From positions 1 to 47,464 of the forward strand of contig JAFQHD010000074.1 in NCBI GenBank assembly GCA_017398145.1: a DNA stretch of 47,464 bases. Reading direction: 5' to 3'. Positions 7,556 through 47,464 of this stretch are shown here, piece after piece; position 1 is the stretch's first letter; the number at the start of each line of letters is the position of its first letter. The notes under the pieces are model-generated. The model was given only the letters and a program-made list of their open reading frames with translations. It ran no database searches and had not been told where the DNA came from. The stretch comes from Clostridia bacterium (lineage in GTDB: Bacteria; Bacillota; Clostridia; Oscillospirales; CAG-272). The position numbers were made by a program, and so were the translations under genes.

Positions 7556-8808
7556 CATATACCGAAGCTATAGAATATATCCACTCAATATGCTGGCTTG
7601 GCAGCCGTCCGGGGCTGGAGCGAATAACCGAGCTGTGCAACAAAATGGATAACATTCAGGATAGGCTGAAGTTTATCCATATCGCAGGCACCAACGGTAA
7701 GGGCTCCGTGTCCTCTATGCTGACCCGTATTCTTGTAAATGCAGGGTATAAGGTCGGCACCTTTACCTCACCTTACGTATACCGCTTCAACGAGCGTATG
7801 GCGGTAAACGGAGAGCCTATAAGCGATGACGAGCTTGCCCATATTATTGAAATTATTAAACCTCTTGCGGATTCTATGGATGATCCGCCGACAGAGTTCG
7901 AGCTTATTACCGCTGCGGGATTTCTGTATTTCTACGAGCAGAAATGCGATATCGTGGTCCTTGAATGCGGTATGGGCGGCAGACTTGATTCTACCAATAT
8001 TATAAAAAAACCCTTACTTTCCGTTATAACCGGAATAGACTTTGATCACACTGCTTTTTTGGGAGATACTCTTGAAAAGATCGCCACAGAAAAGGCAGGA
8101 ATAATAAAGGACGGCTGCCCCGTTATCTACGGTATGATGCCTGATTCCTGTGCGAAAATAATTGAGGACTCCTCTTCCCTTGCCCGCCCCTGCGATTACA
8201 GCAGATTAAGGGATATCAACCTCAGCCTTGACGGTGCGTCCTTCTACGTAACAGGCTACAGAAAGCCCTTTAAATTAAAGCTTATCGGCGGCTATCAGCC
8301 CCGTAACGCTATGCTTGCCGTAAGCTGTGCCGAGATACTGGGAATTGAACGAGAAATAATACACAAAGGCATATGCGAAACCGTATGGCCTGCAAGATTT
8401 GAGGTCTTGTCCGCCGAGCCTATCGTCATTTATGACGGCGGACACAATCCTCAAGGGGTAGAGGCGGCGGTCAACACCGTAAAGGAGCTTTTTGAGGAAA
8501 AAATAAATATCATAAGCGGAGTTATGGCGGATAAGGACTATGATTATATCTGTTCGCTCATAAAGCCGATAGCTCATACCGTCTATTGTGTAACTCCCGA
8601 TAACAGCCGTTCTCTTCCTTCAAAAGACTACGCCGAGGCATTTAAAAAGCAAGGTGTCACGGCATACGCCTTTGACAGTATGGATTCTGCTATGGAAAAG
8701 GCATATTCCGACTCAAAAAAAGAAAACAGACCCCTACTGGGCCTGGGAAGTCTATATATGTATAAGGATTTTAAGGATACCTTGGAAAAGGTGCTTTTGT
8801 CAAAATGA
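7552..8808 (+). CDS. folC: Folylpolyglutamate synthase / dihydrofolate synthase
   Basis: IHIAGTNGKGS, FTSP, NER, TEFE, LECGMGGRLDSTN, DHT..LG, EKAGIIK, WPARFE and DGGHNP. Confidence 0.96.
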   Translation: MTYTEAIEYIHSICWLGSRPGLERITELCNKMDNIQDRLKFIHIAGTNGKGSVSSMLTRILVNAGYKVGTFTSPYVYRFNERMAVNGEPISDDELAHIIEIIKPLADSMDDPPTEFELITAAGFLYFYEQKCDIVVLECGMGGRLDSTNIIKKPLLSVITGIDFDHTAFLGDTLEKIATEKAGIIKDGCPVIYGMMPDSCAKIIEDSSSLARPCDYSRLRDINLSLDGASFYVTGYRKPFKLKLIGGYQPRNAMLAVSCAEILGIEREIIHKGICETVWPARFEVLSAEPIVIYDGGHNPQGVEAAVNTVKELFEEKINIISGVMADKDYDYICSLIKPIAHTVYCVTPDNSRSLPSKDYAEAFKKQGVTAYAFDSMDSAMEKAYSDSKKENRPLLGLGSLYMYKDFKDTLEKVLLSK

Positions 8809-35338: not shown

Positions 35339-36370
35339 TCACATTATTAGCTCATACCTACTCATAACAAGCTCTACGATCTCGGCTGTTCTGACACGCA
35401 TACCAATTTTAGATATAACACCTCGTACCGTATCCTCGGTGATCACGGGAATATACTCACGGTATTCGGGATAGGTGTCTATAAGCTCGCGGAACAGTGT
35501 TATGAGCATATCGCTTGATTTGGGCTTTGATGGATATCCGCGGGAAATGAGTGCCATATTGTTATCATAGTTAGGCGCAAGACCTATAAGCTCACCTGTT
35601 GCCGTGTCTCTCAAAAGTCCGAAATTGTTGGTATGACGGTCGGGGTTAGCTACCACGGTATCCATAAACACGAGCTTTATATAGTCGGGTATCGCTTCGG
35701 GACAAAGCTTTTTCAACGCCTCTATCACATCGGTATAGTCCTCGTTGTCCCCCATAAATGCGGATGCAGGCTCAAAATTCACCGTCGCCGCATCTGTAAA
35801 ATCAAGCGTCCTGATACACTTGTCGCCACGTTCGTACGTCGCCATATTCATATCGAGAGCTTTTCCCAGCTCATAAACAAACAGCTCAGAAAACGCCTCA
35901 TCGTGATTAGCTTTTTTATACATCCACCACTTGCCCTTTTTCAGCTTCCAGCACTTCTCAAAGCTTCCCACATTGGTAAGCTCGGGAGTTCTGGAACGCT
36001 TGCTGTTTGCCGCACGGTTGAAGCTGTCGTAGGTTCCCTTAAGCGCAAGGTTTGAAAAATAATCGTCTGTAAACCTGACATCCTCATATTTAAGCTCAGA
36101 GCCTTCTTCTCTTATCCAATAATTATCGGTTACGGTAGCTCCGTTCACATGGATAACTGTGGATATATCATCCTTTTCGGTAAGACGCAACGCCTTCTTT
36201 AACAGTCTGGAATTGGCTCTGTGGCTGTCGATAGCTCTGGATTCGAGCCACATATCTGCATTGCTTATTCTTCTGAGGAAAAGCGGAAGCAATGCTTCGT
36301 TTTTCACGGTAAGAGTATTATCATTCCATACGGCAACAAGGCTATTGCCGCTTAAAACTTCATAATTCAT
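35339..36370 (-). CDS. HipA/CtkA-like Ser/Thr kinase
   Basis: GSFEKCW...WWMYKK, SELFVYELG, DTVVANPDRHTNNFG, APNYDN. Confidence 0.82.
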   Translation of the reverse strand: MNYEVLSGNSLVAVWNDNTLTVKNEALLPLFLRRISNADMWLESRAIDSHRANSRLLKKALRLTEKDDISTVIHVNGATVTDNYWIREEGSELKYEDVRFTDDYFSNLALKGTYDSFNRAANSKRSRTPELTNVGSFEKCWKLKKGKWWMYKKANHDEAFSELFVYELGKALDMNMATYERGDKCIRTLDFTDAATVNFEPASAFMGDNEDYTDVIEALKKLCPEAIPDYIKLVFMDTVVANPDRHTNNFGLLRDTATGELIGLAPNYDNNMALISRGYPSKPKSSDMLITLFRELIDTYPEYREYIPVITEDTVRGVISKIGMRVRTAEIVELVMSRYELIM

Positions 36371-36460
36371 TTCATTGCCTCCTTTTCTTGGTTATGTAAA
36401 CAGTATATCACAAGTATATTTTACAGTCAATGAAATTTTGTACTTTATTCTATTTAACAC

Positions 36461-36492
36461 AAATCCCCTGCCGAATATTCGGCAGGGGATTT
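36461..36492. terminator. Terminator of the protease-esterase gene
   Basis: AAATCCCCTGCCGAAT-ATTCGGCAGGGGATTT perfect palindrome. Confidence 0.85.
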
Positions 36493-36503
36493 CGTTTGAT
36501 TGA

Positions 36504-39500
36504 TTATTTGAGATCGGTAAAGGATATGGCGGGCATACCGTACGCGTTACAGAGAGTGACCTCTGCGCCGTAGAAGTAGCCGACGTTAGCATTATATCTG
36601 ACACCCAGCAGCTCAAAGGAGCCTGCATCAATGGTGATGGTGTCGCTACCTGTGATTATCATACCCTGATGCTGGATCCATGTGGGAGTACCGTTGTAAT
36701 TTATAAGGATATCAATACCCTTAACATTACCTGAACGGTCGTGGGTGGTAAGTCCGTCACCTACATAGTCCATCTTGATATATGCCTTGCTTGTGCCTTC
36801 GTAGATAACCTCGCGAAGCAGCGGTCCCTGAACGTTATTAAGATCACCTATGCCGAACTTACGGGCTGCAACTATCTCGGAGAGACGGATCGCCTGATGA
36901 TGCTTGATATAAGGATGAACGTTGTTGAACCAGGTCATATCTCTGAAGAGGTCGGAAGTGGAAACTACGTAGCAGTCATCCAGCATTGTAGGAACTATAC
37001 CAAGCTCGCCCTTAACAGCACTTACGTCAAGGAATGCAGGACCGGCAGACTGGTACTGTGTGGGAAGCTCCATCATATAAACGCTGAAGTCGTCGTTACC
37101 GAAGTTAGCACGGAAGTACTCCATAAGCTCGGTAAACATATCGCTGAAGCTGTAGTAATCCTTGCCGTAGGTCAGCTTTGAGTTATACCAGTCAGACTCG
37201 CCCTGATACCAGAGGATACCTGCACAGGAGAAGTTCTTTAAGGGATTGATCATCTGGTTATAGACAAATCTGGTCTTCATTGCGGGGTTGATAAGACCGT
37301 TATAACCAAAGTAATAAGTACCGGTTGCCTCATCGTAGATCTCGTGTCCCCACTTTTCCGCCAGCTCGTTTGGAGCAAAGCAAGCTATGGGAAGTCCTGT
37401 TGCGTCTATCTCGATAACACCAACGGGAACCTCACTCTTGTTGGTCATATTGTATGCAAAAAGGTAACCCAGAGCTGAGAATACCTCCTTACCCATCTCC
37501 TCACGGAAGAGATAGTATATATCGGAAGGCTGCTGATATTTACTGAGTGCCGCGCCTACGTCAGAGGGCTTCTGCCATACTCTGCCGTTGTATACGTCAT
37601 CATAGAGTGTAGGTGTGCCCTGTGCCATAGTGCCTGTAGCACTCTGATAATCGTAGCTGGATATACGGAAGAAACGCATATCGCGGTTATCGTCAAAGTC
37701 GTAAGCAAGCTCGTTGCCCCTGCCGTTAAGGGTGAGGTCAAAGATCTGCTCGCCTAAGCTGTAAAGAACGTTTGACTGACCGATGATATAGTATACGTCA
37801 CCGATAAGAACATCCTTGATAACCGTCTCACCGTCAGCAGAGGTTATTGTCAGATCCTGAGGCTCGGTATTGTAATCGAATGTGTCAGGGAAGGTAACCT
37901 TCCAGTTACCCTCGGCATCAACGGGAGCGGACGCTCTCTTACCGTCAAGCTCAACCACAACGTCACCGCTGTTTGCATCTGCAAAGCCCCATACAGACAG
38001 GGCCTCGTCGCGCTGAAGTATCATATTATCGGTAAAGGCACTTGAAAGCTTTACGTTTGTTGCGGTAGACTCTGCTACCTCTATCTTGGGGATAGCTCTT
38101 GTCTCTGTCTCACCGCAAAGTGTACAGGTCCTTGTTTCAACGCCTTCTGCTTCCTCGGTTGCGGGAGTTGTAACTACCCATTCGCCCCACTCGTGAGCGC
38201 ACTTAGGAAGATCGTCCTCGGTAAGTTCTATAAGATAGAAGTTATAGGACTCGTCGTTATACTGTACCATGAAGCTCCAGCGTCCTGCACGGTCAAGCTC
38301 TACCGTAAGCAGTCCGTCAACGATATCAGCGCTCTTAAGATACTTGGATCCTTCTGCAGCCTTGATAGCGTTAGCAGTTGTATACTTACCGGGAGCATAT
38401 CTTACGATATAGAGATCGTCAAGCTCGCCTATCGTGATCTTGTTGCCGTCCTGAACGAATGCAGGAACCTTCTTTGCTACGTTGTAATAGTAGAAGTGTT
38501 TGTAGCCGTTGTTAAATTCAACTACTACAGTTACCTCACCCTCTTCTCTGTACTGGATCATATAAGACTCTGCGTTCTTAATATCACTCTTGTTGGAGAA
38601 GTTACGAACGTCTGCGGCCTTCTTGATATCGCCTACAGAGGTATAATGACCATATGCGGTACGGATGATCTTGATATCGGGAATATTAGATACTGTCAGC
38701 TGAAGTCCGTTTTCACTGAACTCGGGGTAGTCAACTGTAATATCGTGATGAATTAAATCAAAACTACCGTCATTGTATCTGATAAGAATGGTATAAGGAC
38801 CGGGGTTAGTAAGAGTATAGCTGAAATCGTGGGTGGTCTTTGCATACAGGTCAAGCTTGTTTTTGGATGCCTGATACTTGAAGCCTGTGAAGGGCTTGAT
38901 CTCATTATAACTGCCAAATATACCCTCTGCGATCCATATATCCTTATAATTATCCGCATAGTCCTTAATGGTGAGCTTAACACCGTAGGATTCTACATAA
39001 GGTGTGATATCATTAACATCTGCATAGAGGAAGTAGCCTGTACCGTCGTTTGTTCTTACCCAGAAGGTGTAACTTCCCATCCAGGGCAGATCGTAGGTAA
39101 ATATACCGTCAGCGGTATACTTAGCAACCGTTGCGGCATCAAGAGTAACGTTACGCTCTGCTGCCTTTATCTCGGAACCTGTTGTATAGGTTCCTATTGC
39201 AAATCTTATTTCCTTGATGTCTGTAATGTTATCAAGAGTAATTGTATAGTTATTTACATCAACTATAGCCGGATCGGTGGAGAGTTTGGGGATCTCTCTT
39301 GTTTCGGTAGCTCCGCAGCCGCGACGGCATTCTCTTGTTTCAACGCCTGCTTCTGTCTCGGTTGCTTCCTTGGTTACGACCCAATCCTTCCATACGTGAC
39401 CGAGAGCTGCAATAGCTTCGGTATATGTATCTCCACAGTTTGCACAGGTAAAGGTCTTGACTCCGTCCTCGGTACATGTAGGAACAGTTGTGGTACTGCC

Positions 39501-42302
39501 TTCGTCATAGCTGTGACCGATTGCGGGAATTACTTCTGTGTAGCTGTCACCGCACTTACAGGTATAGGTTATAACACCATCCTCTGTACAGGTAGCAGGA
39601 CTCTCGGTAGCTGTATACTTGTGTACGTGCTCTGCCTCACCCCACATTGCGTAAAGGGTAAGAGGTTCGGTTACGTCATATTCTTCGCCAATAGCATAGA
39701 ACATACCGCTGCCGTCAGACTCGGTGTTCCAGCCTGCAAGAGTTTGCTCTGCACCTGTGGGAATAGATGCCAAGCCTGTGTAACACTCCTTGTTTTTGCG
39801 GAGATTTCCGTTGGCATCGGCATATTCGGTATAGTCGCCGGGGCCAAGCACAGTATAGCCGTCACCGTCGGTAATATAGTTGAAGTCCTGAACCATTATA
39901 CCGGTATTGTTATTAAGATCATAGGTGACGATCGGATCCCAAGCGGCATATACAAAGATGTTCTCGCCGTAAGGAACACGGTCGGTATCTACCATAAACA
40001 CACTGTCCTTATAGGCATTGGGATAGATAACGTATTCGTAGCCGTTGTTGGCATCGTGATCACCGTAAGTGGTCGCACCCTTGCCGTTACCGGTCCAGAA
40101 TTCGGGTACCGTCATATCGTCACGGTCTGTCTGGAGACGGTATCCCTCACGGGAAATACTTCTGATATCCTGAGGGAATTCAAATACTGAAGCGAACCTC
40201 ATAAGACCGTGGGTAGTGGGACTCTTAATACTCTGTACAGTCTTCCACTTTTCCCACTTACCGCCGTTGGCATTGTAATATACCGCGTAGTTACCGCCTG
40301 TGGGATATAAGCCGTCCTCATCCGAACGGATCCATACAGCCTTGAGAGTTATCTCTCCCGGAACTATATATTTCTTACCCTGAGTAAATATATGTGTTCC
40401 TGCATTTCCCGATTCACTCCAACCGATAAATGCCCAACCGTCATATTCGGGAGTTACGTCGGGGATTTCTATAACGTTGCCCGTTGCGCTGACGATGGGA
40501 TCGGGTGCCTCTGCATCCAGTACGGGATCAAAGGATACCTTGACACCGTAATAATTGTTCTGATGACCGAGACGGTTGTATGCGTTCTGAATATCCTGCT
40601 TACAAGCATCGGGATCTTCAAGAACAGCCTTTGCGTTCGTAAGATAAATATTATCCTCGGGATAACCGTAAGCAACAGCTGTATTGTACTGAGCCTGAAG
40701 CGCGGATTTGTCTTGAGGATCAAGGTCCTTGGTAAATGCCTTGATAAAGAAATTGCCCTCATTTTCATACCAGACATAACTGGTATCCGATACTCTGAGC
40801 AGATAGTAGCTCTGACCGGAGCGTGCCTTTGAAAACTGTACGTCCTCACTTGCAGCAAGCGGTCTGTCGCTTGTTAAGGAGGTGTTTTCCAGCACTACCG
40901 TAAATCTCTGCCCGGGAGTAAGAACCACGTGATCCTTGAGACGTATCGTTCTGTAGCCTTCACCAGAAACTTCCTCGGTAACGGCAGAAACCAAACGTCC
41001 CTTGAAGGGGTCGTTTACGGGATTGTCAACGTATATCTTGACCGTCAGGCGTGATCTTGCATCCAAGGTATATACGCCAACCTGAGTAAGAAGCTCGTTG
41101 CCCTTTGCGTAGAAGGTATTTGCGGTAGTTACCGTATTACCGAAAGCTATAGCTCCGTTCAAGCCTAAGAACATAGCACCTTCTGCCCAGGATGGATCGT
41201 AGGTATAGTTGTTATCTACAACATCCGTAGGTTCAAAATCCATAACCCACGCGTGGTTAAGAGAAACATCATAGTAGGAAAGCCAGAAGTAGCCCTCGTC
41301 GCCCCAATCTGTGCCCCAGGAGTTTTTAACAAGCCAAGCGCCCGGGCCGGGAGGGCTTTTAACAAATGCGGACTGAGGGATAGTATCATCCCAACCGACT
41401 ACAAGTACCTCGTGGTTGAGCTGAGGGAACTGATCCTGATAATGTGTTGTATATTCTCCGAAACGGTATGCTGTCTTTACCGAATAATAGGTAATTGCCA
41501 GACATCCGTATATCTGAAGATATGCCTTCATCGTAGCGATGTTGTGACCGTCGAGATGAACGTTCGTTATCATATGCTGCTCGGATACGAAACGGTTTGT
41601 TTCGTTATAAGCATAGCCGTGATAGGGTCCGTCCCAATCGGGGTCGGGAGCGTATTCCTCAAGCTCGGGACCCGACCATCTTCCGAATGCCGCACCTGAA
41701 ACGTAGTTGTTACCGCCGTAATTATATGGATCCGCTGCATTATATCCGTCCATATAACCCGGGTCGGTGGGATCGGGATTTTTGGTACGGTTACCAAAGT
41801 ATGCAAGGTGACCGTCGGCAAAATCTATGTCTGTAACTGCGTTGTTACGCATATACGCCGTTTCTGCCGCAGCTGTTGCAGCCTGCGCCCAGCAGCTGCC
41901 TGCAGCACCCTGGTCCTTGACGGGAGTGATGATCGAAGCGCCTGCGGCATTCTTCACCTCACGGCTGTCATACCGTGAAGGAGCTGCCGTAGCGTTGGCA
42001 GCCGCAAGCTCTCTTGCATTGAGGCTGTGGGCAGCCATTTCTCTTTCGATCTTATTGCCGTTCTCGTCATAGGTCTCCATTTCCATATAGCCGTATTCGG
42101 ATATTGCGCCCGGCTTTATGTAATACTTGTCGATATAATCGTCAACATTGATATTCGCAAGATCCAATGCTGATTCTGCAGGCTCAACGGGAGCCGTCGA
42201 ATAGTAGCTGTCAGCTTCATTTGCTAACAAAACAGTGGGGATAGATGATAACAGCATTAACGTACAGATCATAATGCTTATTATCCGTTGAGAAAGCTTC
42301 AT
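36504..42302 (-). CDS. Secreted 1932-aa protein: C1A papain-like cysteine protease + lectin-like + InlB-B-type and Cys/His repeats + C-terminal sialate O-acetylesterase (SGNH)
   Basis: Signal peptide; VKDQG..GSCWA, NHEVLVVGWDD, KNSWG..WGDEGYFWLSY; F.GW/YNANGG repeats; ATCTEDG repeats; FTDNMILQR, IGDVY.IIGQSN, ILWYQGES, NVHP. Confidence 0.88.
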   Translation of the reverse strand: MKLSQRIISIMICTLMLLSSIPTVLLANEADSYYSTAPVEPAESALDLANINVDDYIDKYYIKPGAISEYGYMEMETYDENGNKIEREMAAHSLNARELAAANATAAPSRYDSREVKNAAGASIITPVKDQGAAGSCWAQAATAAAETAYMRNNAVTDIDFADGHLAYFGNRTKNPDPTDPGYMDGYNAADPYNYGGNNYVSGAAFGRWSGPELEEYAPDPDWDGPYHGYAYNETNRFVSEQHMITNVHLDGHNIATMKAYLQIYGCLAITYYSVKTAYRFGEYTTHYQDQFPQLNHEVLVVGWDDTIPQSAFVKSPPGPGAWLVKNSWGTDWGDEGYFWLSYYDVSLNHAWVMDFEPTDVVDNNYTYDPSWAEGAMFLGLNGAIAFGNTVTTANTFYAKGNELLTQVGVYTLDARSRLTVKIYVDNPVNDPFKGRLVSAVTEEVSGEGYRTIRLKDHVVLTPGQRFTVVLENTSLTSDRPLAASEDVQFSKARSGQSYYLLRVSDTSYVWYENEGNFFIKAFTKDLDPQDKSALQAQYNTAVAYGYPEDNIYLTNAKAVLEDPDACKQDIQNAYNRLGHQNNYYGVKVSFDPVLDAEAPDPIVSATGNVIEIPDVTPEYDGWAFIGWSESGNAGTHIFTQGKKYIVPGEITLKAVWIRSDEDGLYPTGGNYAVYYNANGGKWEKWKTVQSIKSPTTHGLMRFASVFEFPQDIRSISREGYRLQTDRDDMTVPEFWTGNGKGATTYGDHDANNGYEYVIYPNAYKDSVFMVDTDRVPYGENIFVYAAWDPIVTYDLNNNTGIMVQDFNYITDGDGYTVLGPGDYTEYADANGNLRKNKECYTGLASIPTGAEQTLAGWNTESDGSGMFYAIGEEYDVTEPLTLYAMWGEAEHVHKYTATESPATCTEDGVITYTCKCGDSYTEVIPAIGHSYDEGSTTTVPTCTEDGVKTFTCANCGDTYTEAIAALGHVWKDWVVTKEATETEAGVETRECRRGCGATETREIPKLSTDPAIVDVNNYTITLDNITDIKEIRFAIGTYTTGSEIKAAERNVTLDAATVAKYTADGIFTYDLPWMGSYTFWVRTNDGTGYFLYADVNDITPYVESYGVKLTIKDYADNYKDIWIAEGIFGSYNEIKPFTGFKYQASKNKLDLYAKTTHDFSYTLTNPGPYTILIRYNDGSFDLIHHDITVDYPEFSENGLQLTVSNIPDIKIIRTAYGHYTSVGDIKKAADVRNFSNKSDIKNAESYMIQYREEGEVTVVVEFNNGYKHFYYYNVAKKVPAFVQDGNKITIGELDDLYIVRYAPGKYTTANAIKAAEGSKYLKSADIVDGLLTVELDRAGRWSFMVQYNDESYNFYLIELTEDDLPKCAHEWGEWVVTTPATEEAEGVETRTCTLCGETETRAIPKIEVAESTATNVKLSSAFTDNMILQRDEALSVWGFADANSGDVVVELDGKRASAPVDAEGNWKVTFPDTFDYNTEPQDLTITSADGETVIKDVLIGDVYYIIGQSNVLYSLGEQIFDLTLNGRGNELAYDFDDNRDMRFFRISSYDYQSATGTMAQGTPTLYDDVYNGRVWQKPSDVGAALSKYQQPSDIYYLFREEMGKEVFSALGYLFAYNMTNKSEVPVGVIEIDATGLPIACFAPNELAEKWGHEIYDEATGTYYFGYNGLINPAMKTRFVYNQMINPLKNFSCAGILWYQGESDWYNSKLTYGKDYYSFSDMFTELMEYFRANFGNDDFSVYMMELPTQYQSAGPAFLDVSAVKGELGIVPTMLDDCYVVSTSDLFRDMTWFNNVHPYIKHHQAIRLSEIVAARKFGIGDLNNVQGPLLREVIYEGTSKAYIKMDYVGDGLTTHDRSGNVKGIDILINYNGTPTWIQHQGMIITGSDTITIDAGSFELLGVRYNANVGYFYGAEVTLCNAYGMPAISFTDLK

Positions 42303-42497
42303 AGTTTGACCTCCATAAATAAATTCTTGTTATAATGATACTATATTATGTACAATTTGTCAACATTGTTTGAACTTTTAATGAGGTTTTTGTTTGTTTT
42401 TTACAACTATATTTTCCTATTTTGAAAATTTAAAGTATTACCAACTACCTATTGAGAAGAAAGAGGATATGTGATATAATATATAAAACGAGGTGAT

Positions 42498-43697
42498 GTG
42501 ATGCTCAAATACGAAAGATTATCCGACGAGATATCCGGAAAAATAAGCTCGGACAGAGAAAACGGCTCTCTGCCGAGGGTGGCGTTTGACGAAAATAAAG
42601 TTATCCGACGTAACTGTGACAAGGACAATGCAAGCGTTATCCGTACCGCCTTTATACGTGATATAGACAAGATAATCCATTGTCCCTACTACAACCGCTA
42701 TACCGACAAGACACAGGTGTTTTCCTTCTTCAGAAACGACGATATAACAAGGCGGGCTCTGCACGTTCAGCTCGTATCGCGCATAGCGCGTACCATCGGC
42801 AAGGCTCTGGGACTTAACCTTGACCTGATAGAGGCAATAGCTCTGGGTCACGATATCGGACATACCCCCTTCGGTCACGCAGGCGAGGAATATTTAGACG
42901 GGCTGTTCTTTGCTCATACGGGCAGACGTTTCAGCCACAATATACATTCGGTCAGAGTGCTTGACAAGATATTCCCCTATAATATTTCCTTACAGACCTT
43001 AAGCGGCATTGCCTCCCACGACGGCGAGATGGAGCTATGCGAATATTACCCTTCCCCACTTGTAAGCTTTGATACTTTTGACAGACAGATAGAGGGGTGT
43101 TACCTTGACAAAAAGAATGTTCGCAAGCTCGTCCCCTCTACCCTTGAGGGGTGTGTTATGCGTATATCCGATATAATCGCATATCTCGGCAAGGACCGAC
43201 AGGATGCCGAAAAGGCGGGGCTTCTTAAGACCGATTCATACGATGACTGCGCCATCGGTACATATAACGCCGAAATAATAAACAACCTTATGGTCAACAT
43301 CATAGAAAACAGCTACGGCAAGCCTTATATCAAAATGGATAATGAGCATTTTGAGGCTCTTAAAAAGGCAAAAGCAGATAATTATCAGCTGATATATAAA
43401 AAGGATTCGGTAAGAAGTGAGCTTGAAAACACCGTACAGCCCATGATGGAGCGTATGTACGAAAGGCTTTTAGCCGACCTTGTATCGTGTGATAAGGCTT
43501 CACCCGTATTTACCCATCATATAGACTATGTAAACACGGCTCATTATAACCGTGATATTCCCTACGAACAGACCGAGCCGAATCAGATAGTCGTTGATTA
43601 TATCGCCAGCATGACCGATGATTATTTTACAGATCTGTATTCATTTCTTTTCCCCGAAAGTGATCTGAAGATAACCTATAAGGGATATTTTGATTGA
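42498..43697 (+). CDS. dgt: Deoxyguanosinetriphosphate triphosphohydrolase (HD domain)
   Basis: RTAFIRDIDKIIH...KTQV, RALH, LGHDIGHTPFGHAGE, TLEG....SDIIAY, DYIASMTD. Confidence 0.9.
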   Translation: MMLKYERLSDEISGKISSDRENGSLPRVAFDENKVIRRNCDKDNASVIRTAFIRDIDKIIHCPYYNRYTDKTQVFSFFRNDDITRRALHVQLVSRIARTIGKALGLNLDLIEAIALGHDIGHTPFGHAGEEYLDGLFFAHTGRRFSHNIHSVRVLDKIFPYNISLQTLSGIASHDGEMELCEYYPSPLVSFDTFDRQIEGCYLDKKNVRKLVPSTLEGCVMRISDIIAYLGKDRQDAEKAGLLKTDSYDDCAIGTYNAEIINNLMVNIIENSYGKPYIKMDNEHFEALKKAKADNYQLIYKKDSVRSELENTVQPMMERMYERLLADLVSCDKASPVFTHHIDYVNTAHYNRDIPYEQTEPNQIVVDYIASMTDDYFTDLYSFLFPESDLKITYKGYFD

Positions 43698-43730
43698 TCT
43701 TCAAGAATGAACTATCTCTTAATCCCGGTA

Positions 43731-43759
43731 TTGATATTTTACATTTTTTGTAGTATAAT
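43731..43759 (+). promoter_or_regulatory. sigmaA promoter of the lipid operon
   Basis: TTGATA-17 nt-TATAAT, then AAGGAG RBS before TTG 43793. Confidence 0.65.
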
Positions 43760-43792
43760 GTTATATTATATTTTATTAAAAGGAGAAAGGCT

Positions 43793-44494
43793 TTGAGCCA
43801 AAATCAAAAAAAGAAGAAAAACCCGCCTTTTTATAATTTCTGCTATGACTTCGTCAAGATAACGGGCATTCTACCCGCCCTTATCTGGATGAGACCGAAG
43901 CTTCACTACCCCTTCGGCAAGCCGAAAACCAAGGGCGGACTTATGGTCATATCCAACCATCCCACCTTTATAGACCCCATAACGGTACAGCTGACCTTTC
44001 CCTTCCGACGCCTGCACAGCCTTGCTACCAAGGATATTTTCAGCAATCCGATAAAAAAAGGTCTGTTTACCTTGATGCACTGTATCATAGTAGACAAGGA
44101 TAATTTCAGCATGTCGTCCTTCCGTCAGGTGGTAGGCTGCCTTGAAGAAGGTAAGGCCGTAGTTATCTTCCCCGAGGGAAGGGTCAACAGAGAGTCCTCC
44201 ACAGAGCCTCTGCTTGCATTTAAATCCGGAGCCGTTATTATGGCTCACAAGGCAGGCGTACCAATTCTGCCCATGTATATCGTCAAAAACGAAAAATGGT
44301 ATCACCGTCAGCATATCGTGATCGGAGAAGCACTCAGCCCCATTGAAATGTTGGGGAAAATGCCAAACGTACAGGAGCTGAATATGGTAACCGAGCTTCT
44401 GAGAGAAAAGGAAGAAAAATTAAGAGACTACTACGAATCCCTTCTAATACATAAGCAGAAACGAAAGGATGAAGCAGATGAACGAGAAGTTTAA
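43793..44494 (+). CDS. plsC: PlsC-family lysophospholipid acyltransferase
   Basis: SNHPTFID (HX4D), IFPEGRVN, FKSGA, PILP. Confidence 0.9.
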   Translation: MSQNQKKKKNPPFYNFCYDFVKITGILPALIWMRPKLHYPFGKPKTKGGLMVISNHPTFIDPITVQLTFPFRRLHSLATKDIFSNPIKKGLFTLMHCIIVDKDNFSMSSFRQVVGCLEEGKAVVIFPEGRVNRESSTEPLLAFKSGAVIMAHKAGVPILPMYIVKNEKWYHRQHIVIGEALSPIEMLGKMPNVQELNMVTELLREKEEKLRDYYESLLIHKQKRKDEADEREV

Positions 44495-45980
44495 AAAATA
44501 TACCGACGAAGATACCTTTTCAAAAATAGTTGATTTTCCCAACATCACCTCTATGTGGGCGCACTGCGTGTCAGCCTACGGTGATAATATTGCCATAGTT
44601 GACTCTGAGAGCTATACGTATAATAAGCTTGACAAAGACGTTTGCGGCTTCAGAACCGTTCTTAAGGAGAACGCAGCTCTTCCCGGCTCGCTTATCGGCA
44701 TCCTCTGTCCCAACTCCTACGGATTTGTCAAGGCGTATCTTGCGGCGGCTACCTTCGGCACTCCCGCCGTGCTTATGCCTACACACCTTGATGAGATGAC
44801 TGTATTCGGCATTGCGTCAAAATTCGGTATGAAGGCTGTCGTATACGATGAGTCCCTTGAGGAAAAAGTCAAGGTGCTCCGTGAAAAGAATCCCGCGGTG
44901 GCTCTTATACCCTCCTCGGCTTTAAGCGAGGAAAAGACCCCCGCCGTTCCCGTTCCCTCCGAAGCCCCTGCCGCCATACTCTTCACAGGCGGTACTACAG
45001 GCAAGAGTAAGGGAGCAAAGCTCAGCCAGAGGGCTGTCATAGCAGGCACCCGTAACGGCTGCTACGGCATCAAGGAGATATTTGAACAGAGATATCTGCT
45101 GGTGCTTCCCCTGACCCACGTCTTCGGTCTTATCCGTAATCTGATGACAAGCCTCTATACGGGAAGCGCGCTTTACATATGCCGCAACAACAAGGATATG
45201 TTCCGAGATGTGGCGGTATTCAAGCCCACCATCATGGTGTTGGTTCCCGCCCTTGCAGAGATGGCGCTGAATCTCAGCGCCCAGTTCGGCAGAAACATGT
45301 GGGGGCCCGACCTAAAGACTATTATCTGCGGTGCGGCTCCCGTTGCTCCCTATCTGGTAACAGAGTATGACAAGTTAGGCGTTACACTCCTGCCCGGCTA
45401 CGGACTTACCGAGTCGGCAAACCTCGTCAGCGGTAACCCCGAGGCGCTGAACAAGCCCGAGTCGGTAGGACTTATATACGACGGTATGGAGTATAAGATA
45501 GTTGACGGTGAGCTGTGGCTAAAGGGCATCAATATGATGGACGGATACGTTATACCCGAGGACAACGATATCGCCTACGAGGACGGATATTTTAAAACAG
45601 GCGACCTTGTCCGTATCGATGATGAGGGATTCCTATATATCACGGGCAGAACAAAGGAAATAATCGTTCTCCCCACAGGAGAAAATGTTTCTCCCGCAGA
45701 GCTTGAGGTAAAGTTCTGCGCTATAGATACAGTTCAGGACTGCCTTGTTTTTGACGATGACAACGGCAGGTTAGTGTTAGAGGTCCTTCCCAGAATGACA
45801 AAAATAAAGGCTTCGGGTATCGAGGATATCTACGGTCACATAAAGGCAGAGGTTGACAGAATAAATAATACCCTGCCCTCCTTTGAAAGAATAAATAAGC
45901 TTATCATCCGTGATACCGACTTTGTGCGTACACCTGCGATGAAGATTGCGAGGAACTTAAATGGCAATGTCAAGAAATGA
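44478..45980 (+). CDS. Long-chain acyl-AMP ligase (acyl-CoA / acyl-ACP synthetase family)
   Basis: FTGGTTGKSKG, LPLTHVFG, GYGLTES, FKTGDL, TGRTKEII..TGENVSP.ELE, RT..MKI. Start 44478 (44469 possible), overlapping plsC. Confidence 0.9.
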   Translation: MNEKFKKYTDEDTFSKIVDFPNITSMWAHCVSAYGDNIAIVDSESYTYNKLDKDVCGFRTVLKENAALPGSLIGILCPNSYGFVKAYLAAATFGTPAVLMPTHLDEMTVFGIASKFGMKAVVYDESLEEKVKVLREKNPAVALIPSSALSEEKTPAVPVPSEAPAAILFTGGTTGKSKGAKLSQRAVIAGTRNGCYGIKEIFEQRYLLVLPLTHVFGLIRNLMTSLYTGSALYICRNNKDMFRDVAVFKPTIMVLVPALAEMALNLSAQFGRNMWGPDLKTIICGAAPVAPYLVTEYDKLGVTLLPGYGLTESANLVSGNPEALNKPESVGLIYDGMEYKIVDGELWLKGINMMDGYVIPEDNDIAYEDGYFKTGDLVRIDDEGFLYITGRTKEIIVLPTGENVSPAELEVKFCAIDTVQDCLVFDDDNGRLVLEVLPRMTKIKASGIEDIYGHIKAEVDRINNTLPSFERINKLIIRDTDFVRTPAMKIARNLNGNVKK

Positions 45981-46218
45981 TATAATCGAAAAGCTCACCG
46001 ACGTAATGAAGATGGCTATGCCCTCGGAAATAAACGAGAAAGCATTAAACGAAAACGCTTCTCTTGTGAACGACCTGGGGCTTTCCTCGGTGGGAGTTCT
46101 GTACGTGGTCATAGCCATAGAGGAATTCTTTAACATCCGCTTTGACGACGTGGGATTTGCAGATTTCAAGACTGTAGGAGACGTAGTCGATTATATCGAA
46201 AAAAAGCTTGAAGCATGA
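45961..46218 (+). CDS. Acyl carrier protein
   Basis: Small acidic protein with L.NDLGLSSV.....V.AIEE.FNI, TVGDVVDYI. Start 45961 or 45967. Confidence 0.88.
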   Translation: MAMSRNDIIEKLTDVMKMAMPSEINEKALNENASLVNDLGLSSVGVLYVVIAIEEFFNIRFDDVGFADFKTVGDVVDYIEKKLEA

Positions 46219-47216
46219 AATGGATAAAAAGAGAGCCCGAATACGGGGATATGATCCGTGTTGCTTCGGGAAGCATATACCATTTCGGAATATACGTATC
46301 CCGTGACGAGGTCATAGCCTTCGGGCTTGCTCCGTCACAGCGGCCGCTGCTTCACAACAGCGAGGTAGAGGTGCTTTCCACCGATATCGACACCTTTCTT
46401 TCGGGAGGAGAGCTTGAGGTTGCCGAATTTGACCCCGAGGAAAAAAAAGACCACCGCACACCAGACGAGGCGGTAGAATTCGCAAGATCTAAACTCGGTA
46501 TGCGGGGCTATAACATCATCTATAATAACTGCGAGCATTTTGCCAATGAAGCTATCTCGGGTAAGCCCTCCTGTGAGCAGGCTGACAGAGTACGGGCTAT
46601 GTTTCGGAATATGCCCGTAGTGGATATATATTTAGCAAAACTGCCCGACAGAGATATAGGTGAGCCTCTTGCCTGTTCCGTCCGTCAGAGGGATATAGAC
46701 GGCGTTTCAAACGACCGTGTAAAGCGGGAAAAATATTACGTCTGGAAGCTTCTTGAATACGGTCTTATGCGAAGCTTCGGAATAAAAGCAGAAGAGCTTG
46801 AGTTTGAAAAGGACAAAGGCGGCAGATATATGACCGAGGGCGTGGAGTTTTCACTGTCACACTCTAAGGGTGCGCTTGCAGTGGCAGTATCCCGTGCCCC
46901 CGTGGGTATAGATATCGAGGACATGGGTGCCCTCTGCCGTGAAAGTATGCCAAAACGTATAATGACCGACAGAGAATACGAAAGATACCTGTCTTTAACG
47001 GATGAAGAAAAGCAGAAATTCTTCGTAAACACATGGACAGCCAAGGAAGCACTTTTTAAGGCTTCTCACTCCCGACGGTTTATCCCCCGTGATGCTGACA
47101 CAGCCGACGGCGGATACCGAAGCTATGAGAAAAATATCGGCGGTAAGCTTTATTCCCTGTCTGTCGCCACCCCTACCCCGGAAAGAATAAGGGTATATGA
47201 AAATATCTGTTTCTAA
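46215..47216 (+). CDS. Fusion: LRAT/PLAAT-type (permuted NlpC/P60) domain + Sfp-type 4'-phosphopantetheinyl transferase
   Basis: N-half P..GD.I......YHFGIYV ... YNIIYNNCEHF; C-half FSLSHS, VGIDIE, WTAKEALFKA; single uninterrupted frame. Confidence 0.88.
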   Translation: MKWIKREPEYGDMIRVASGSIYHFGIYVSRDEVIAFGLAPSQRPLLHNSEVEVLSTDIDTFLSGGELEVAEFDPEEKKDHRTPDEAVEFARSKLGMRGYNIIYNNCEHFANEAISGKPSCEQADRVRAMFRNMPVVDIYLAKLPDRDIGEPLACSVRQRDIDGVSNDRVKREKYYVWKLLEYGLMRSFGIKAEELEFEKDKGGRYMTEGVEFSLSHSKGALAVAVSRAPVGIDIEDMGALCRESMPKRIMTDREYERYLSLTDEEKQKFFVNTWTAKEALFKASHSRRFIPRDADTADGGYRSYEKNIGGKLYSLSVATPTPERIRVYENICF

Positions 47217-47218
47217 CA

Positions 47219-47250
47219 AATGATCCCGAAGTCTATGCTTCGGGATCATT
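47219..47250 (+). terminator. Hairpin ending the lipid operon
   Basis: AATGATCCCGAAG-loop-CTTCGGGATCATT immediately after the stop. Confidence 0.7.
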
Positions 47251-47452
47251 ACAGTGTGTCGATAAACCTATCGACACGCTGTCAGACTTCGAAAAGGGAA
47301 GGTAGGTGTGAACCCCCAAAACTCGGCAAGCTCGTTTCGGGGAACCCCACCGTTTTCGTGAAAAGGGTCCGTAGGTGTACTAAGTACAGTAGTGACCCTT
47401 TTCGCGGAAAAGTGTGAAAAGGTGGCATAAACTCGATGTTTATGCCACCTTT
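47251..47452. repeat. Multi-hairpin REP/MITE-like non-coding element
   Basis: Four consecutive inverted repeats: 47251-47282, 47314-47342, 47353-47410, 47418-47452. Confidence 0.55.
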
Positions 47453-47464
47453 GAATGCTTATCA

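Follow-up and report, generated by a model that had tools for sequence, protein, structure and literature searches.

The window analysed here, a stretch of 47,464 nucleotides from a Clostridia bacterium (contig JAFQHD010000074.1 of assembly GCA_017398145.1), carries near its end a gene that joins an N-terminal domain of the LRAT/PLAAT type to a complete Sfp-type 4'-phosphopantetheinyl transferase (PPTase). Its open reading frame (ORF) of 333 amino acids (46215-47216, plus strand) closes a series of four tightly packed plus-strand genes, which encode a PlsC-family acyltransferase, an AMP-forming acyl ligase, an acyl carrier protein (ACP) and the LRAT-PPTase fusion itself. Both domains come from known families, and the fusion is set in an uncharacterised, widespread lipid-salvage cassette. 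A literature search that left subscription journals and supplements outside its reach found no paper on either the fusion or the cassette. With a confidence a little short of even, we read the fusion protein as a soluble acyl-thioester enzyme, thioesterase or transacylase, that would work on the acyl-ACP of the cassette during salvage of exogenous lipids. L, G and C numbers used below are our labels for loci, genomes and contigs.

The gene product is one soluble two-domain protein. A first-pass annotation, made from the sequence alone, had described an LRAT domain running in frame into a complete PPTase, and profile searches, structure prediction and intact motifs all bear this out. Pfam LRAT (PF04970) matches residues 7-117 at 59.2 bits against a cut-off of 24.3, and Pfam ACPS (PF01648) matches residues 229-288 at 45.2 bits against 25, both above the gathering score. 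By sequence, the nearest solved structure to the PPTase half is Sfp (1qr0, E 1e-5, residues 209-294), and to the LRAT half human PLAAT4/RARRES3 (2lkt, residues 6-117), at a marginal E of 6e-3. An AlphaFold2 model built on 42 aligned homologs reached a mean predicted local distance difference test score (pLDDT) of 93.4 and a predicted template modelling score (pTM) of 0.69. Compared with the PDB by Foldseek, the first ~113 residues of this model matched PLAAT3 (7zom, E 3e-6, TM(target) 0.80 over 113 columns), with HRASLS2 (4dpz) and AdPLA (4fa0) alongside it in a TM(target) range of 0.78-0.81. The C-terminal two-thirds matched Sfp (4mrt, E 1e-13, 221 columns, TM(target) 0.68) and, further, 1qr0, AASDHPPT and the mycobacterial PptT and PptAb, which share the two-lobe pseudo-dimeric fold. 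The metal- and coenzyme A (CoA)-binding motifs of the PPTase half are intact, since GIDIE (D233, E235) corresponds to GxDxE and WTAKEALFK (K277, E278, K282) to WxxKEAxxK. This half reached no NCBIfam equivalog cut-off: the HetI, AusB, AcpT, EntD and AcpS models all stayed below threshold, the best being HetI at 49.9 bits against 370. Direct reading of the sequence places His23 in YHFGIY (codon 46281-46283), Ala35 in EVIAF (codon 46317-46319) and Cys106 in NCEHF, so the His and Cys of the earlier description are indeed in place. The protein contains no hydrophobic or membrane segment (the highest 19-residue Kyte-Doolittle mean is 0.89) and no signal peptide that would indicate an extracytoplasmic role.

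The fusion recurs far beyond this genome. A search space of 5.8 billion proteins yielded 620 matches at E <= 1e-3, and the best 120 of these, at 51-100% identity, carry both Pfam domains without exception (120/120). An exhaustive search of 50%-identity representatives gave 186 matches at E <= 1e-30; when the best 150 were classed by domain-wise phmmer, 111 held both halves, 34 the PPTase only and 5 the LRAT domain only. Database names of these relatives are either 'lecithin retinol acyltransferase family protein' or '4'-phosphopantetheinyl transferase superfamily protein'. Other assemblies agree at the nucleotide level. A contig of run X3, from another gut sample, spans 44855-47277 with 19 substitutions and 0 gaps, and in the four public gut runs compared no indel falls inside the ORF, all those listed lying at 47309 or beyond; runs X2-X4 stem from the study that probably also supplied the source sample, and X5 and X6, from other studies, cover the gene only partly. 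The possibility raised in the first-pass annotation, that the fusion might be strain-specific or an artefact of assembly, is thereby removed: it is neither.

Fusion is nevertheless one of two states between which the family has moved repeatedly. To place the gene among its relatives, one genome per species was scanned with the motif NNCEHF[AV]xxC; this returned 582 confirmed relatives, of which the best 80 loci, mostly in metagenome-assembled genomes (MAGs) of gut and rumen Clostridia, were studied, their ORFs being labelled by phmmer with the proteins of the window and those of a long-form relative. Among 77 LRAT ORFs, 43 are fused to a PPTase and 34 stand alone, often with a PPTase gene as the next gene (L075, L085, L086, L088, L090, L100, L110). 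On a maximum-likelihood tree of the 77 LRAT domains, which is based on few columns and has rough forks, the fused/alone label needs 8 changes, at least 6 of them forced by starred branches. Of 101 genomes sampled from the window's own family, only 3 were found to have the full fusion (G000, the window's own, G039 and G031), the others having stand-alone PPTases; in G009 a stand-alone LRAT gene adjoins ligase-carrier and PlsC genes. Of two other species in the window's genus, one has a stand-alone PPTase only and the other gave no match.

The surroundings of the gene are more constant than its fusion state. One cassette is shown by 76 of the 80 loci, in the order AMP-ligase with a C-terminal carrier domain (PCP; ~645 aa), MFS_2 transporter (optional), PlsC, PlsC, AMP-ligase (~505 aa), ACP and LRAT, the last fused to a PPTase or alone. 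The cassette is conserved in Bacillota of gut and rumen, and its LRAT-ACP-PlsC order across many genera; the window holds the short form, as do L038, L043 and L069. Homologs of the window PlsC occur in 69 of 76 cassette loci, which makes PlsC the most constant neighbour of the LRAT gene. A small ACP gene lies directly upstream of the LRAT ORF, fused or alone, in 69 of 77 cases (63 by automatic count and 6 masked by ORF-calling artefacts). The remaining eight comprise three loci that truly have no such gene (L054, L061, L081), one ORF at a contig start and four non-cassette loci. In the window the ATG of the fusion gene overlaps the stop codon of the ACP gene (ATGA), and the corresponding overlap is 4 nt in 32 loci and 1 nt in 10. 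No ligase gene adjoins the ACP in 25 of 73 cassette loci that keep the ACP and LRAT genes. Stand-alone LRAT forms are bare domains of ~135 aa.

The stronger link of the LRAT domain is therefore to the carrier protein, rather than to the PPTase, and because the fused or unfused state has changed at least 6-8 times, the association has been made or kept repeatedly. The first-pass annotation had tied the Cys domain to acyl-ACP by way of the fused PPTase. The connection to ACP gains independent support from gene order; the argument from the PPTase is weaker than it looks, since separate genes are common (34 of 77), the state has changed at least six times, and the PPTase appears to be general and not dedicated. 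A complex prediction for the LRAT domain (residues 1-135) with the operon ACP gave a best score of 0.17 against a mark of 0.32 in a run without controls, which speaks neither for nor against binding.

Several individual loci deserve separate mention. Four relatives do not belong to the cassette (L105, L106, L108, L109); their neighbours are unrelated to it (RelA/Dtd, NAGPA, unknown proteins) and offered no functional clue. Two of them, L106 9941-11206 (Neobacillus cucumis) and L108 2494-3744 (an Anaerovibrio MAG), encode ~420-aa proteins in which an N-terminal LRAT domain precedes a C-terminal part of ~280 aa without a Pfam family, and each is preceded by a ~700-aa protein without a family, so that the domain occurs here in a different architecture. 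In L084 (a Candidatus Scatosoma MAG) a 560-aa large serine recombinase with Resolvase, Recombinase and zinc-ribbon domains (443-2125) lies ~400 nt upstream of a long-form cassette, a hint that mobile islands can carry the cassette. In L027, the locus of a 53%-identical fusion in G039, the ligase gene upstream of the ACP (7607-8428) encodes only 272 aa of the C-terminal part and abuts a divergent ORF that joins a helix-turn-helix domain to fragments of DNA polymerase III alpha; the cassette copy here is rearranged or in decay.

Conservation of the active site was assessed over 212 homologs of 300-400 aa, the window protein included. In the LRAT half, His23, Tyr99 and Asn105 are each kept in 211, His108 in 210 and Cys106 in 209, with Ser in 2. 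The first-pass annotation had left conservation of the Cys across the family as a point of doubt, which these counts settle in its favour. In the PPTase half, Asp233 is kept in 209, Glu235 in 200, Lys277 in 210, Glu278 in 208 and Lys282 in 210. Mean identity to the query over the 211 homologs is 56% for the LRAT half and 43% for the PPTase half, so that the LRAT half is the more conserved, and the pattern indicates that both halves are under selection. Position 35 holds Gln in 192 homologs, Ala in 13 from several lineages, the window protein among them, and Glu in 4. The window protein also has Ala113 where 208 of 212 homologs have a second Cys, seven residues after the nucleophile. Ala35 had been noticed in the first-pass annotation as the replacement of a usual third-triad His; the Ala is real, but His, although usual for Pfam LRAT, is not the usual residue of this bacterial family.

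Published work on related enzymes bears on these substitutions. Members of the LRAT family normally have His as the third triad residue (PMC10318531), and this third residue is described as non-essential in LRAT (PMC3142127) and in Staphylococcus aureus LnsA (PMC13559823). Both PMC13559823 and PMC3142127 describe a role for the conserved Tyr that precedes the Cys by seven residues, and the Cys at +7 of LRAT is given as probably structural (PMC3142127). Because the third residue is reported to be dispensable and the +7 Cys to be probably structural, we expect the LRAT domain of the fusion to be active.

The PPTase half probably serves the whole cell. The fusion is the only PF01648 match in its own genome, which contains four carrier proteins: an isolated ACP on C75, a second pair of ligase and ACP on C222, a Dlt-like set on C187 and the ACP of the window. 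Since this half is apparently the sole PPTase in a genome with four carriers, it is likely to have a wide range of clients. Of the 37 fused genomes, 26 have their sole PF01648 match in a 331-410-aa frame, which was taken as the fusion (coordinates were checked for G101 only); 10 have a further PPTase, and the one match in G124 lies in a different ORF, of 251 aa. Matches of AcpS size were detected in G128, G129 and G132, so the PF01648 search can see AcpS. Twelve of 13 unfused genomes have a single match (G148 has two), all in frames of 188-257 aa, the size of Sfp. The PPTase half appears to be a general, often the only, PPTase and not one dedicated to the cassette ACP; in an organism that lacks type II fatty-acid synthesis it seems to take the place of AcpS.

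Two of the carrier loci show features of their own. On C222 (L121 7282-9241) an AMP-ligase of 568 aa is followed by a 75-aa ACP. On C187 (L122 229-5678, minus strand) an AMP-ligase (493 aa), a GNAT protein (265 aa), a 75-aa carrier, an MBOAT protein (528 aa) and a 448-aa protein without a Pfam family form a Dlt-like row; a GNAT within a Dlt-like operon is unusual.

The wider genomic setting points to lipid salvage. In fetched flanks of the 76 cassette loci, homologs of genes of the window's own genome were found for DegV/FakB in 45, FakA in 38, a ~450-aa MFS protein (MFS_2) in 36 and a lipase-like hydrolase in 33, and in several relatives Hydrolase_4-type alpha/beta hydrolases, DegV (FakB), MFS_2 and FakA genes lie downstream of the cassette. 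The window's own genome carries the orthologous set on contig C124, in the order DegV(FakB)-FakA-MFS_2-PlsC-hydrolase. The PlsC of C124 is of the cassette's 'first PlsC' type and that of the window of the 'second', so that the system lies in two pieces in this genome. The PlsC and AMP-ligase of the operon, the Fak- and lipase-like neighbours and a host without a detected ketoacyl synthase together suggest the salvage setting.

As to this last point, the own-genome assembly (G000; 2.6 Mb in 233 contigs) gave no ketoacyl synthase (PF00109) match at 91% completeness, the control being positive in 14 of 14 reference genomes; PlsX, PlsY, FakA and DegV are present. A ketoacyl synthase was detected in 8 of the 50 cassette genomes, four times each among the 37 fused and the 13 unfused ones (MAG completeness unknown), and in 31 of 101 sampled genomes of the window's family, with none in 70. 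Loss of fatty-acid synthesis as a trait specific to the cassette was accordingly rejected, the family baseline also being low (31/101 vs 8/50). Fatty-acid auxotrophy seems to be the rule in this family of gut Clostridia. Many of the gut and rumen Clostridia sampled show no ketoacyl synthase and must therefore build their membranes from scavenged acyl chains, and the cassette appears to allow bacteria that cannot synthesise fatty acids to recycle lipids from their environment. As a separate observation, frames of ~770-826 aa with two ketoacyl-synthase-like halves were found in G113:C3, G118:C43, G130:C196, G009:C34, G029:C91, G074:C11, G083:C40 and G100:C104; in several genomes otherwise without FabF they are the only ketoacyl-synthase-like matches.

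Taken together, the favoured reading, to which we give slightly less than an even chance, is that of an acyl-thioester enzyme working on acyl-ACP. The PPTase half converts apo-carrier proteins to their holo form; the AMP-forming ligase would load scavenged fatty acids onto ACP, and PlsC would pass the acyl chains from ACP to a lysolipid or glycerol-phosphate acceptor. The LRAT domain, by way of an acyl-Cys106 thioester, would act on the thioester of the same ACP. It may do so as a thioesterase or editor, releasing acyl chains that PlsC cannot use and freeing holo-ACP, or as a transacylase, handing acyl chains to a further acceptor; in either form the fusion would join two 'ACP-servicing' activities. 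LRAT and PLAAT are membrane-anchored, and the missing membrane segment of the fusion would fit a soluble substrate such as acyl-ACP. The anchoring is drawn in part from PMC13559823. We favour a thioesterase or transacylase because the protein is soluble, translationally coupled to the ACP gene and repeatedly joined to an enzyme that acts on ACP, and because BtrH offers the precedent of a papain-like enzyme that takes acyl groups from ACP (PMC10318531).

Several points weigh against acyl-ACP as the substrate. The characterised LRAT-family enzymes (LRAT, PLAAT1-5, S. aureus LnsA) use phospholipid esters, not thioesters, as acyl donors (PMC4624172; PMC13559823). Gene adjacency and fusion indicate a functional link, not a common substrate, and both contact with ACP and activity of the LRAT domain are inferred. 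The three cassette loci L054, L061 and L081 have an LRAT-PPTase gene without a stand-alone ACP gene. The missing fatty-acid synthesis is shared background physiology and not an association of the cassette. Finally, the window protein has Ala at two positions that the family keeps (Gln35 and the second Cys at +7), and Ala35 together with Ala113 could weaken the activity of its LRAT domain.

The main rival, rather less probable in our estimate, is a Lands-cycle deacylase. Here the LRAT domain would be a PLAAT-like phospholipase A1/A2 acting on phospholipid, whether endogenous or imported; the ligase, together with ACP and PlsC, would re-acylate the lysolipid with scavenged fatty acid, and the PPTase fusion would only secure co-expression, with no contact between LRAT domain and ACP. 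The characterised relatives all use phospholipid donors (PMC4624172), LnsA taking the sn-1 chain of phosphatidylglycerol (PMC13559823); the fold is closest to PLAAT3, HRASLS2 and AdPLA; and the parts of the cassette, namely an MFS transporter, a PlsC domain and an AMP ligase, resemble the LplT/Aas re-acylation system, with PlsC the most constant neighbour (69/76). Yet neither a membrane anchor nor an amphipathic segment is present in the fusion, stand-alone LRAT proteins consist of the bare domain, and a deacylase leaves unexplained both the adjacency and translational coupling to the ACP gene (69/77 loci) and the recurrent joining to a PPTase. A further and unlikely alternative is a loader of ACP that needs no ATP. 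The LRAT domain would then draw its acyl chain from phospholipid, lysolipid or glyceride, all ester lipids, and move it through Cys106 to the phosphopantetheine thiol of holo-ACP, without a ligase, and the fused PPTase would supply the holo-ACP. Such a route would agree with the chemistry of the family, in which an ester donor gives an acyl-Cys thioester and then an acylated acceptor (PMC13559823, PMC3142127). It would also suit the overlap of the start codon with the ACP stop codon, the joining to an enzyme by which the acceptor thiol is installed, a host that shows no ketoacyl synthase and is read as unable to make fatty acids, and the 25 of 73 cassette loci without a ligase gene beside the ACP. 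In those 25 loci, however, the AMP-ligase-PCP protein is usually present and could load the ACP in trans, and the operon of the window does have a ligase. Transfer from an ester to a thioester is also energetically uphill, and we know of no LRAT-type enzyme that has a carrier-protein thiol as its acceptor. If it were true nonetheless, a lipid:ACP transacylase acting on ester lipids of the diet or the host would allow gut Clostridia auxotrophic for fatty acids to channel foreign lipids through acyl-ACP to the membrane without spending ATP, and would be a new entry into bacterial phospholipid synthesis beside FakAB/PlsX and the acyl-ACP synthetases.

Least probable of the readings weighed is adjacency without shared chemistry, in which a housekeeping PPTase gene would have drifted beside a lipid cassette and the LRAT domain would acylate or deacylate another target, for example the N-terminus of lipoproteins, as LnsA does with its CPBP partner. 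A general PPTase with four carriers to serve, the only one detected in its own genome and in 26 of 37 fused genomes, would be compatible with such drift, as would the common unfused forms (34/77), and a CPBP/Rce1-like gene does follow the fusion in L038. That neighbour occurs in only one locus among those whose downstream genes were scanned, though, and the fusion protein has neither signal peptide nor membrane segment for an extracytoplasmic role like that of LnsA. Chance proximity also sits poorly with an LRAT-ACP-PlsC order conserved across many genera and a fusion that recurs. Weighing these accounts, we keep the soluble acyl-thioester enzyme as our tentative preference.

Comparison with known systems shows where the cassette is familiar and where it departs. 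With the LRAT/PLAAT (HRASLS) family (PF04970; PLAAT3, PLAAT4, HRASLS2, AdPLA) the N-terminal domain shares a permuted papain-like fold, a His before the Cys, the NCEHF motif and a Tyr seven residues before the Cys, and by this analogy an acyl-Cys mechanism is expected. It differs in its third residue, which is Gln in the bacterial family and Ala in the window protein instead of His, in the missing second Cys at +7 in comparison with LRAT, and in having an Sfp-type PPTase, or nothing, in place of the C-terminal membrane helix. The window protein is moreover bacterial, cytosolic and encoded after an ACP gene, and its sequence similarity to these enzymes is marginal. The PPTase half resembles Sfp-type (group II) enzymes such as Bacillus subtilis Sfp, HetI and PptT in its two-lobe fold of ~200 aa and its Mg/CoA motifs; the N-terminal LRAT domain and the lack of an NCBIfam equivalog match set it apart.

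At the level of the gene set, the closest parallel is the Gram-negative LplT-Aas pair, in which Aas combines PlsC and acyl-ACP synthetase domains: the cassette likewise offers an MFS protein in long-form relatives, a PlsC, an AMP-forming ligase and ACP as acyl carrier. NCBIfam NF005959 scores 87.3 bits with the ligase and 40.9 bits with PlsC against a cut-off of 886, and NF006386 scores 62.9 against 1221, so that the cassette consists of Aas-like parts, yet by these scores is not a member of the Aas family. Unlike LplT-Aas, its parts are separate and duplicated genes (two ligases, two carriers, two PlsC), it has its own ACP and PPTase, and it adds the LRAT domain. Its transporter is MFS_2/GPH-like, whereas LplT belongs to MFS_1. 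Type II thioesterases of nonribosomal peptide synthetase and polyketide synthase clusters are cluster-encoded editors that free mis-acylated carriers. They are alpha/beta hydrolases with a Ser-His-Asp triad and the N-terminal domain of the fusion is papain-like, so the analogy is one of role only. The ACP:aminoglycoside acyltransferase BtrH is a papain-like Cys enzyme that uses the acyl group of a carrier protein, again an analogy of role, since BtrH_N is a different papain-like family (PF14399, related to C39/C70). To our knowledge, neither BtrH nor a type II thioesterase has been found fused to a PPTase. Among bacterial proteins, S. aureus LnsA is an LRAT-like acyltransferase with a Cys/His dyad, an essential Tyr and a dispensable third polar residue; as a secreted protein, it takes phosphatidylglycerol as its acyl donor and depends on a CPBP partner in the membrane (PMC13559823). 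In secretion and dependence on CPBP, as in genomic context, the LnsA/LnsB system of lipoprotein N-acylation differs from the fusion.

Exogenous acyl chains enter bacterial lipids by known routes, through fatty acid kinase with PlsX/PlsY or through acyl-ACP synthetases. The cassette extends these by a pair each of ligases, carriers and PlsC-type transferases and by a Cys-His enzyme of the LRAT type, all in versions that are unstudied. Should the LRAT domain act on acyl-ACP, no earlier enzyme of the LRAT/PLAAT family would have been linked to a carrier protein, and the domain would be a new kind of ACP editor or transacylase. The fusion protein is probably essential, because these organisms seem to have no PPTase other than its C-terminal half, and this would make it a handle on their lipid metabolism. 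Gene order and conserved residues define the cassette well enough for direct testing.

The features of the operon are collected in Table 1. Ahead of its first gene lies a gene for a dGTPase-like HD protein. The region has 13 promoter-like sites, with 8.8 expected. The best matches of the window PlsC are the second PlsC of relatives (for example L033 7521-8207, 64% identity), and its matches to the NCBIfam TIGR00530, Aas and acyl-[ACP]--phospholipid O-acyltransferase models all fall below cut-off. The same holds for the matches of the ligase to the fatty-acid-CoA ligase, MenE and Aas ligase-part models; its nearest solved structures are FadD13 (3r44, E 4e-28) and then oxalate- and succinylbenzoate-CoA ligases. 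Ser43 of the ACP is invariant in an alignment of 45 cassette ACPs.

Table 1. Features of the four-gene operon and its fusion gene, in window coordinates
Feature	Positions	Strand	Basis
Promoter-like site ahead of the operon: TTGATA, 17 nt, TATAAT (11/12 consensus)	43731-43759	+	Consensus match only
PlsC-family acyltransferase, 233 aa, 'second PlsC' type of the cassette	43793-44494	+	Pfam PF01553, E 1e-23; motifs NHPTFID (HX4D) and FPEGR
AMP-forming acyl ligase, 503 aa, candidate acyl-ACP synthetase	44469-45980	+	Pfam AMP-binding, E 1e-54; AMP-binding_C_3
Dedicated acyl carrier protein, 85 aa, Ser43 in LGLSSVG	45961-46218	+	Pfam PP-binding, E 2e-7; NCBIfam ACP models below cut-off
LRAT/PLAAT-type permuted papain-like domain, residues 1-132 (His23, Ala35, Tyr99, Cys106), without membrane segment	46215-46610	+	Pfam, conservation, structure matches
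Codon of nucleophile Cys106 (NCEHF)	46530-46532	+	Direct reading; Cys in 209/212 homologs, Ser in 2
Sfp-type PPTase half, residues 133-333, two lobes, including stop codon	46611-47216	+	Pfam ACPS; Sfp by sequence and fold
Perfect 12-bp inverted repeat (ATGATCCCGAAG ... CTTCGGGATCAT), 4 nt past the fusion stop codon	47221-47250	+	Direct reading and blastn self-match

The inverted repeat that follows the fusion gene is possibly a hairpin at the transcript end, without a T run; a terminator scan did not call it. An Rfam scan of 43000-47464 at E up to 0.1 gave no match. The G+C content stays between 0.42 and 0.53 throughout 36000-47464, and recent transfer of the operon was set aside, as base composition over this region gives no sign of it. 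The last 215 nt of the contig (47250-47464) form a modular dispersed repeat without an Rfam match, parts of which recur, often at contig ends, in ~34 more contigs of this genome (another 57 blastn matches, E <= 1e-3); C111 and C137 are 98% identical to it over ~212 nt. In other gut samples the summed contig depth is 2-7 before the tail and 111-2116 within it, with many joints and loose ends at ~47252, 47301 and 47352. This dispersed repeat probably explains why the contig stops 250 nt after the fusion gene. Upstream on the minus strand, 36504-42302 encodes a protein of 1932 aa that combines a papain-family protease, a lectin-like domain, Listeria-Bacteroides repeats and a sialate-O-acetylesterase-like domain, and a HipA-like kinase gene lies beside it (35339-36370, minus strand).

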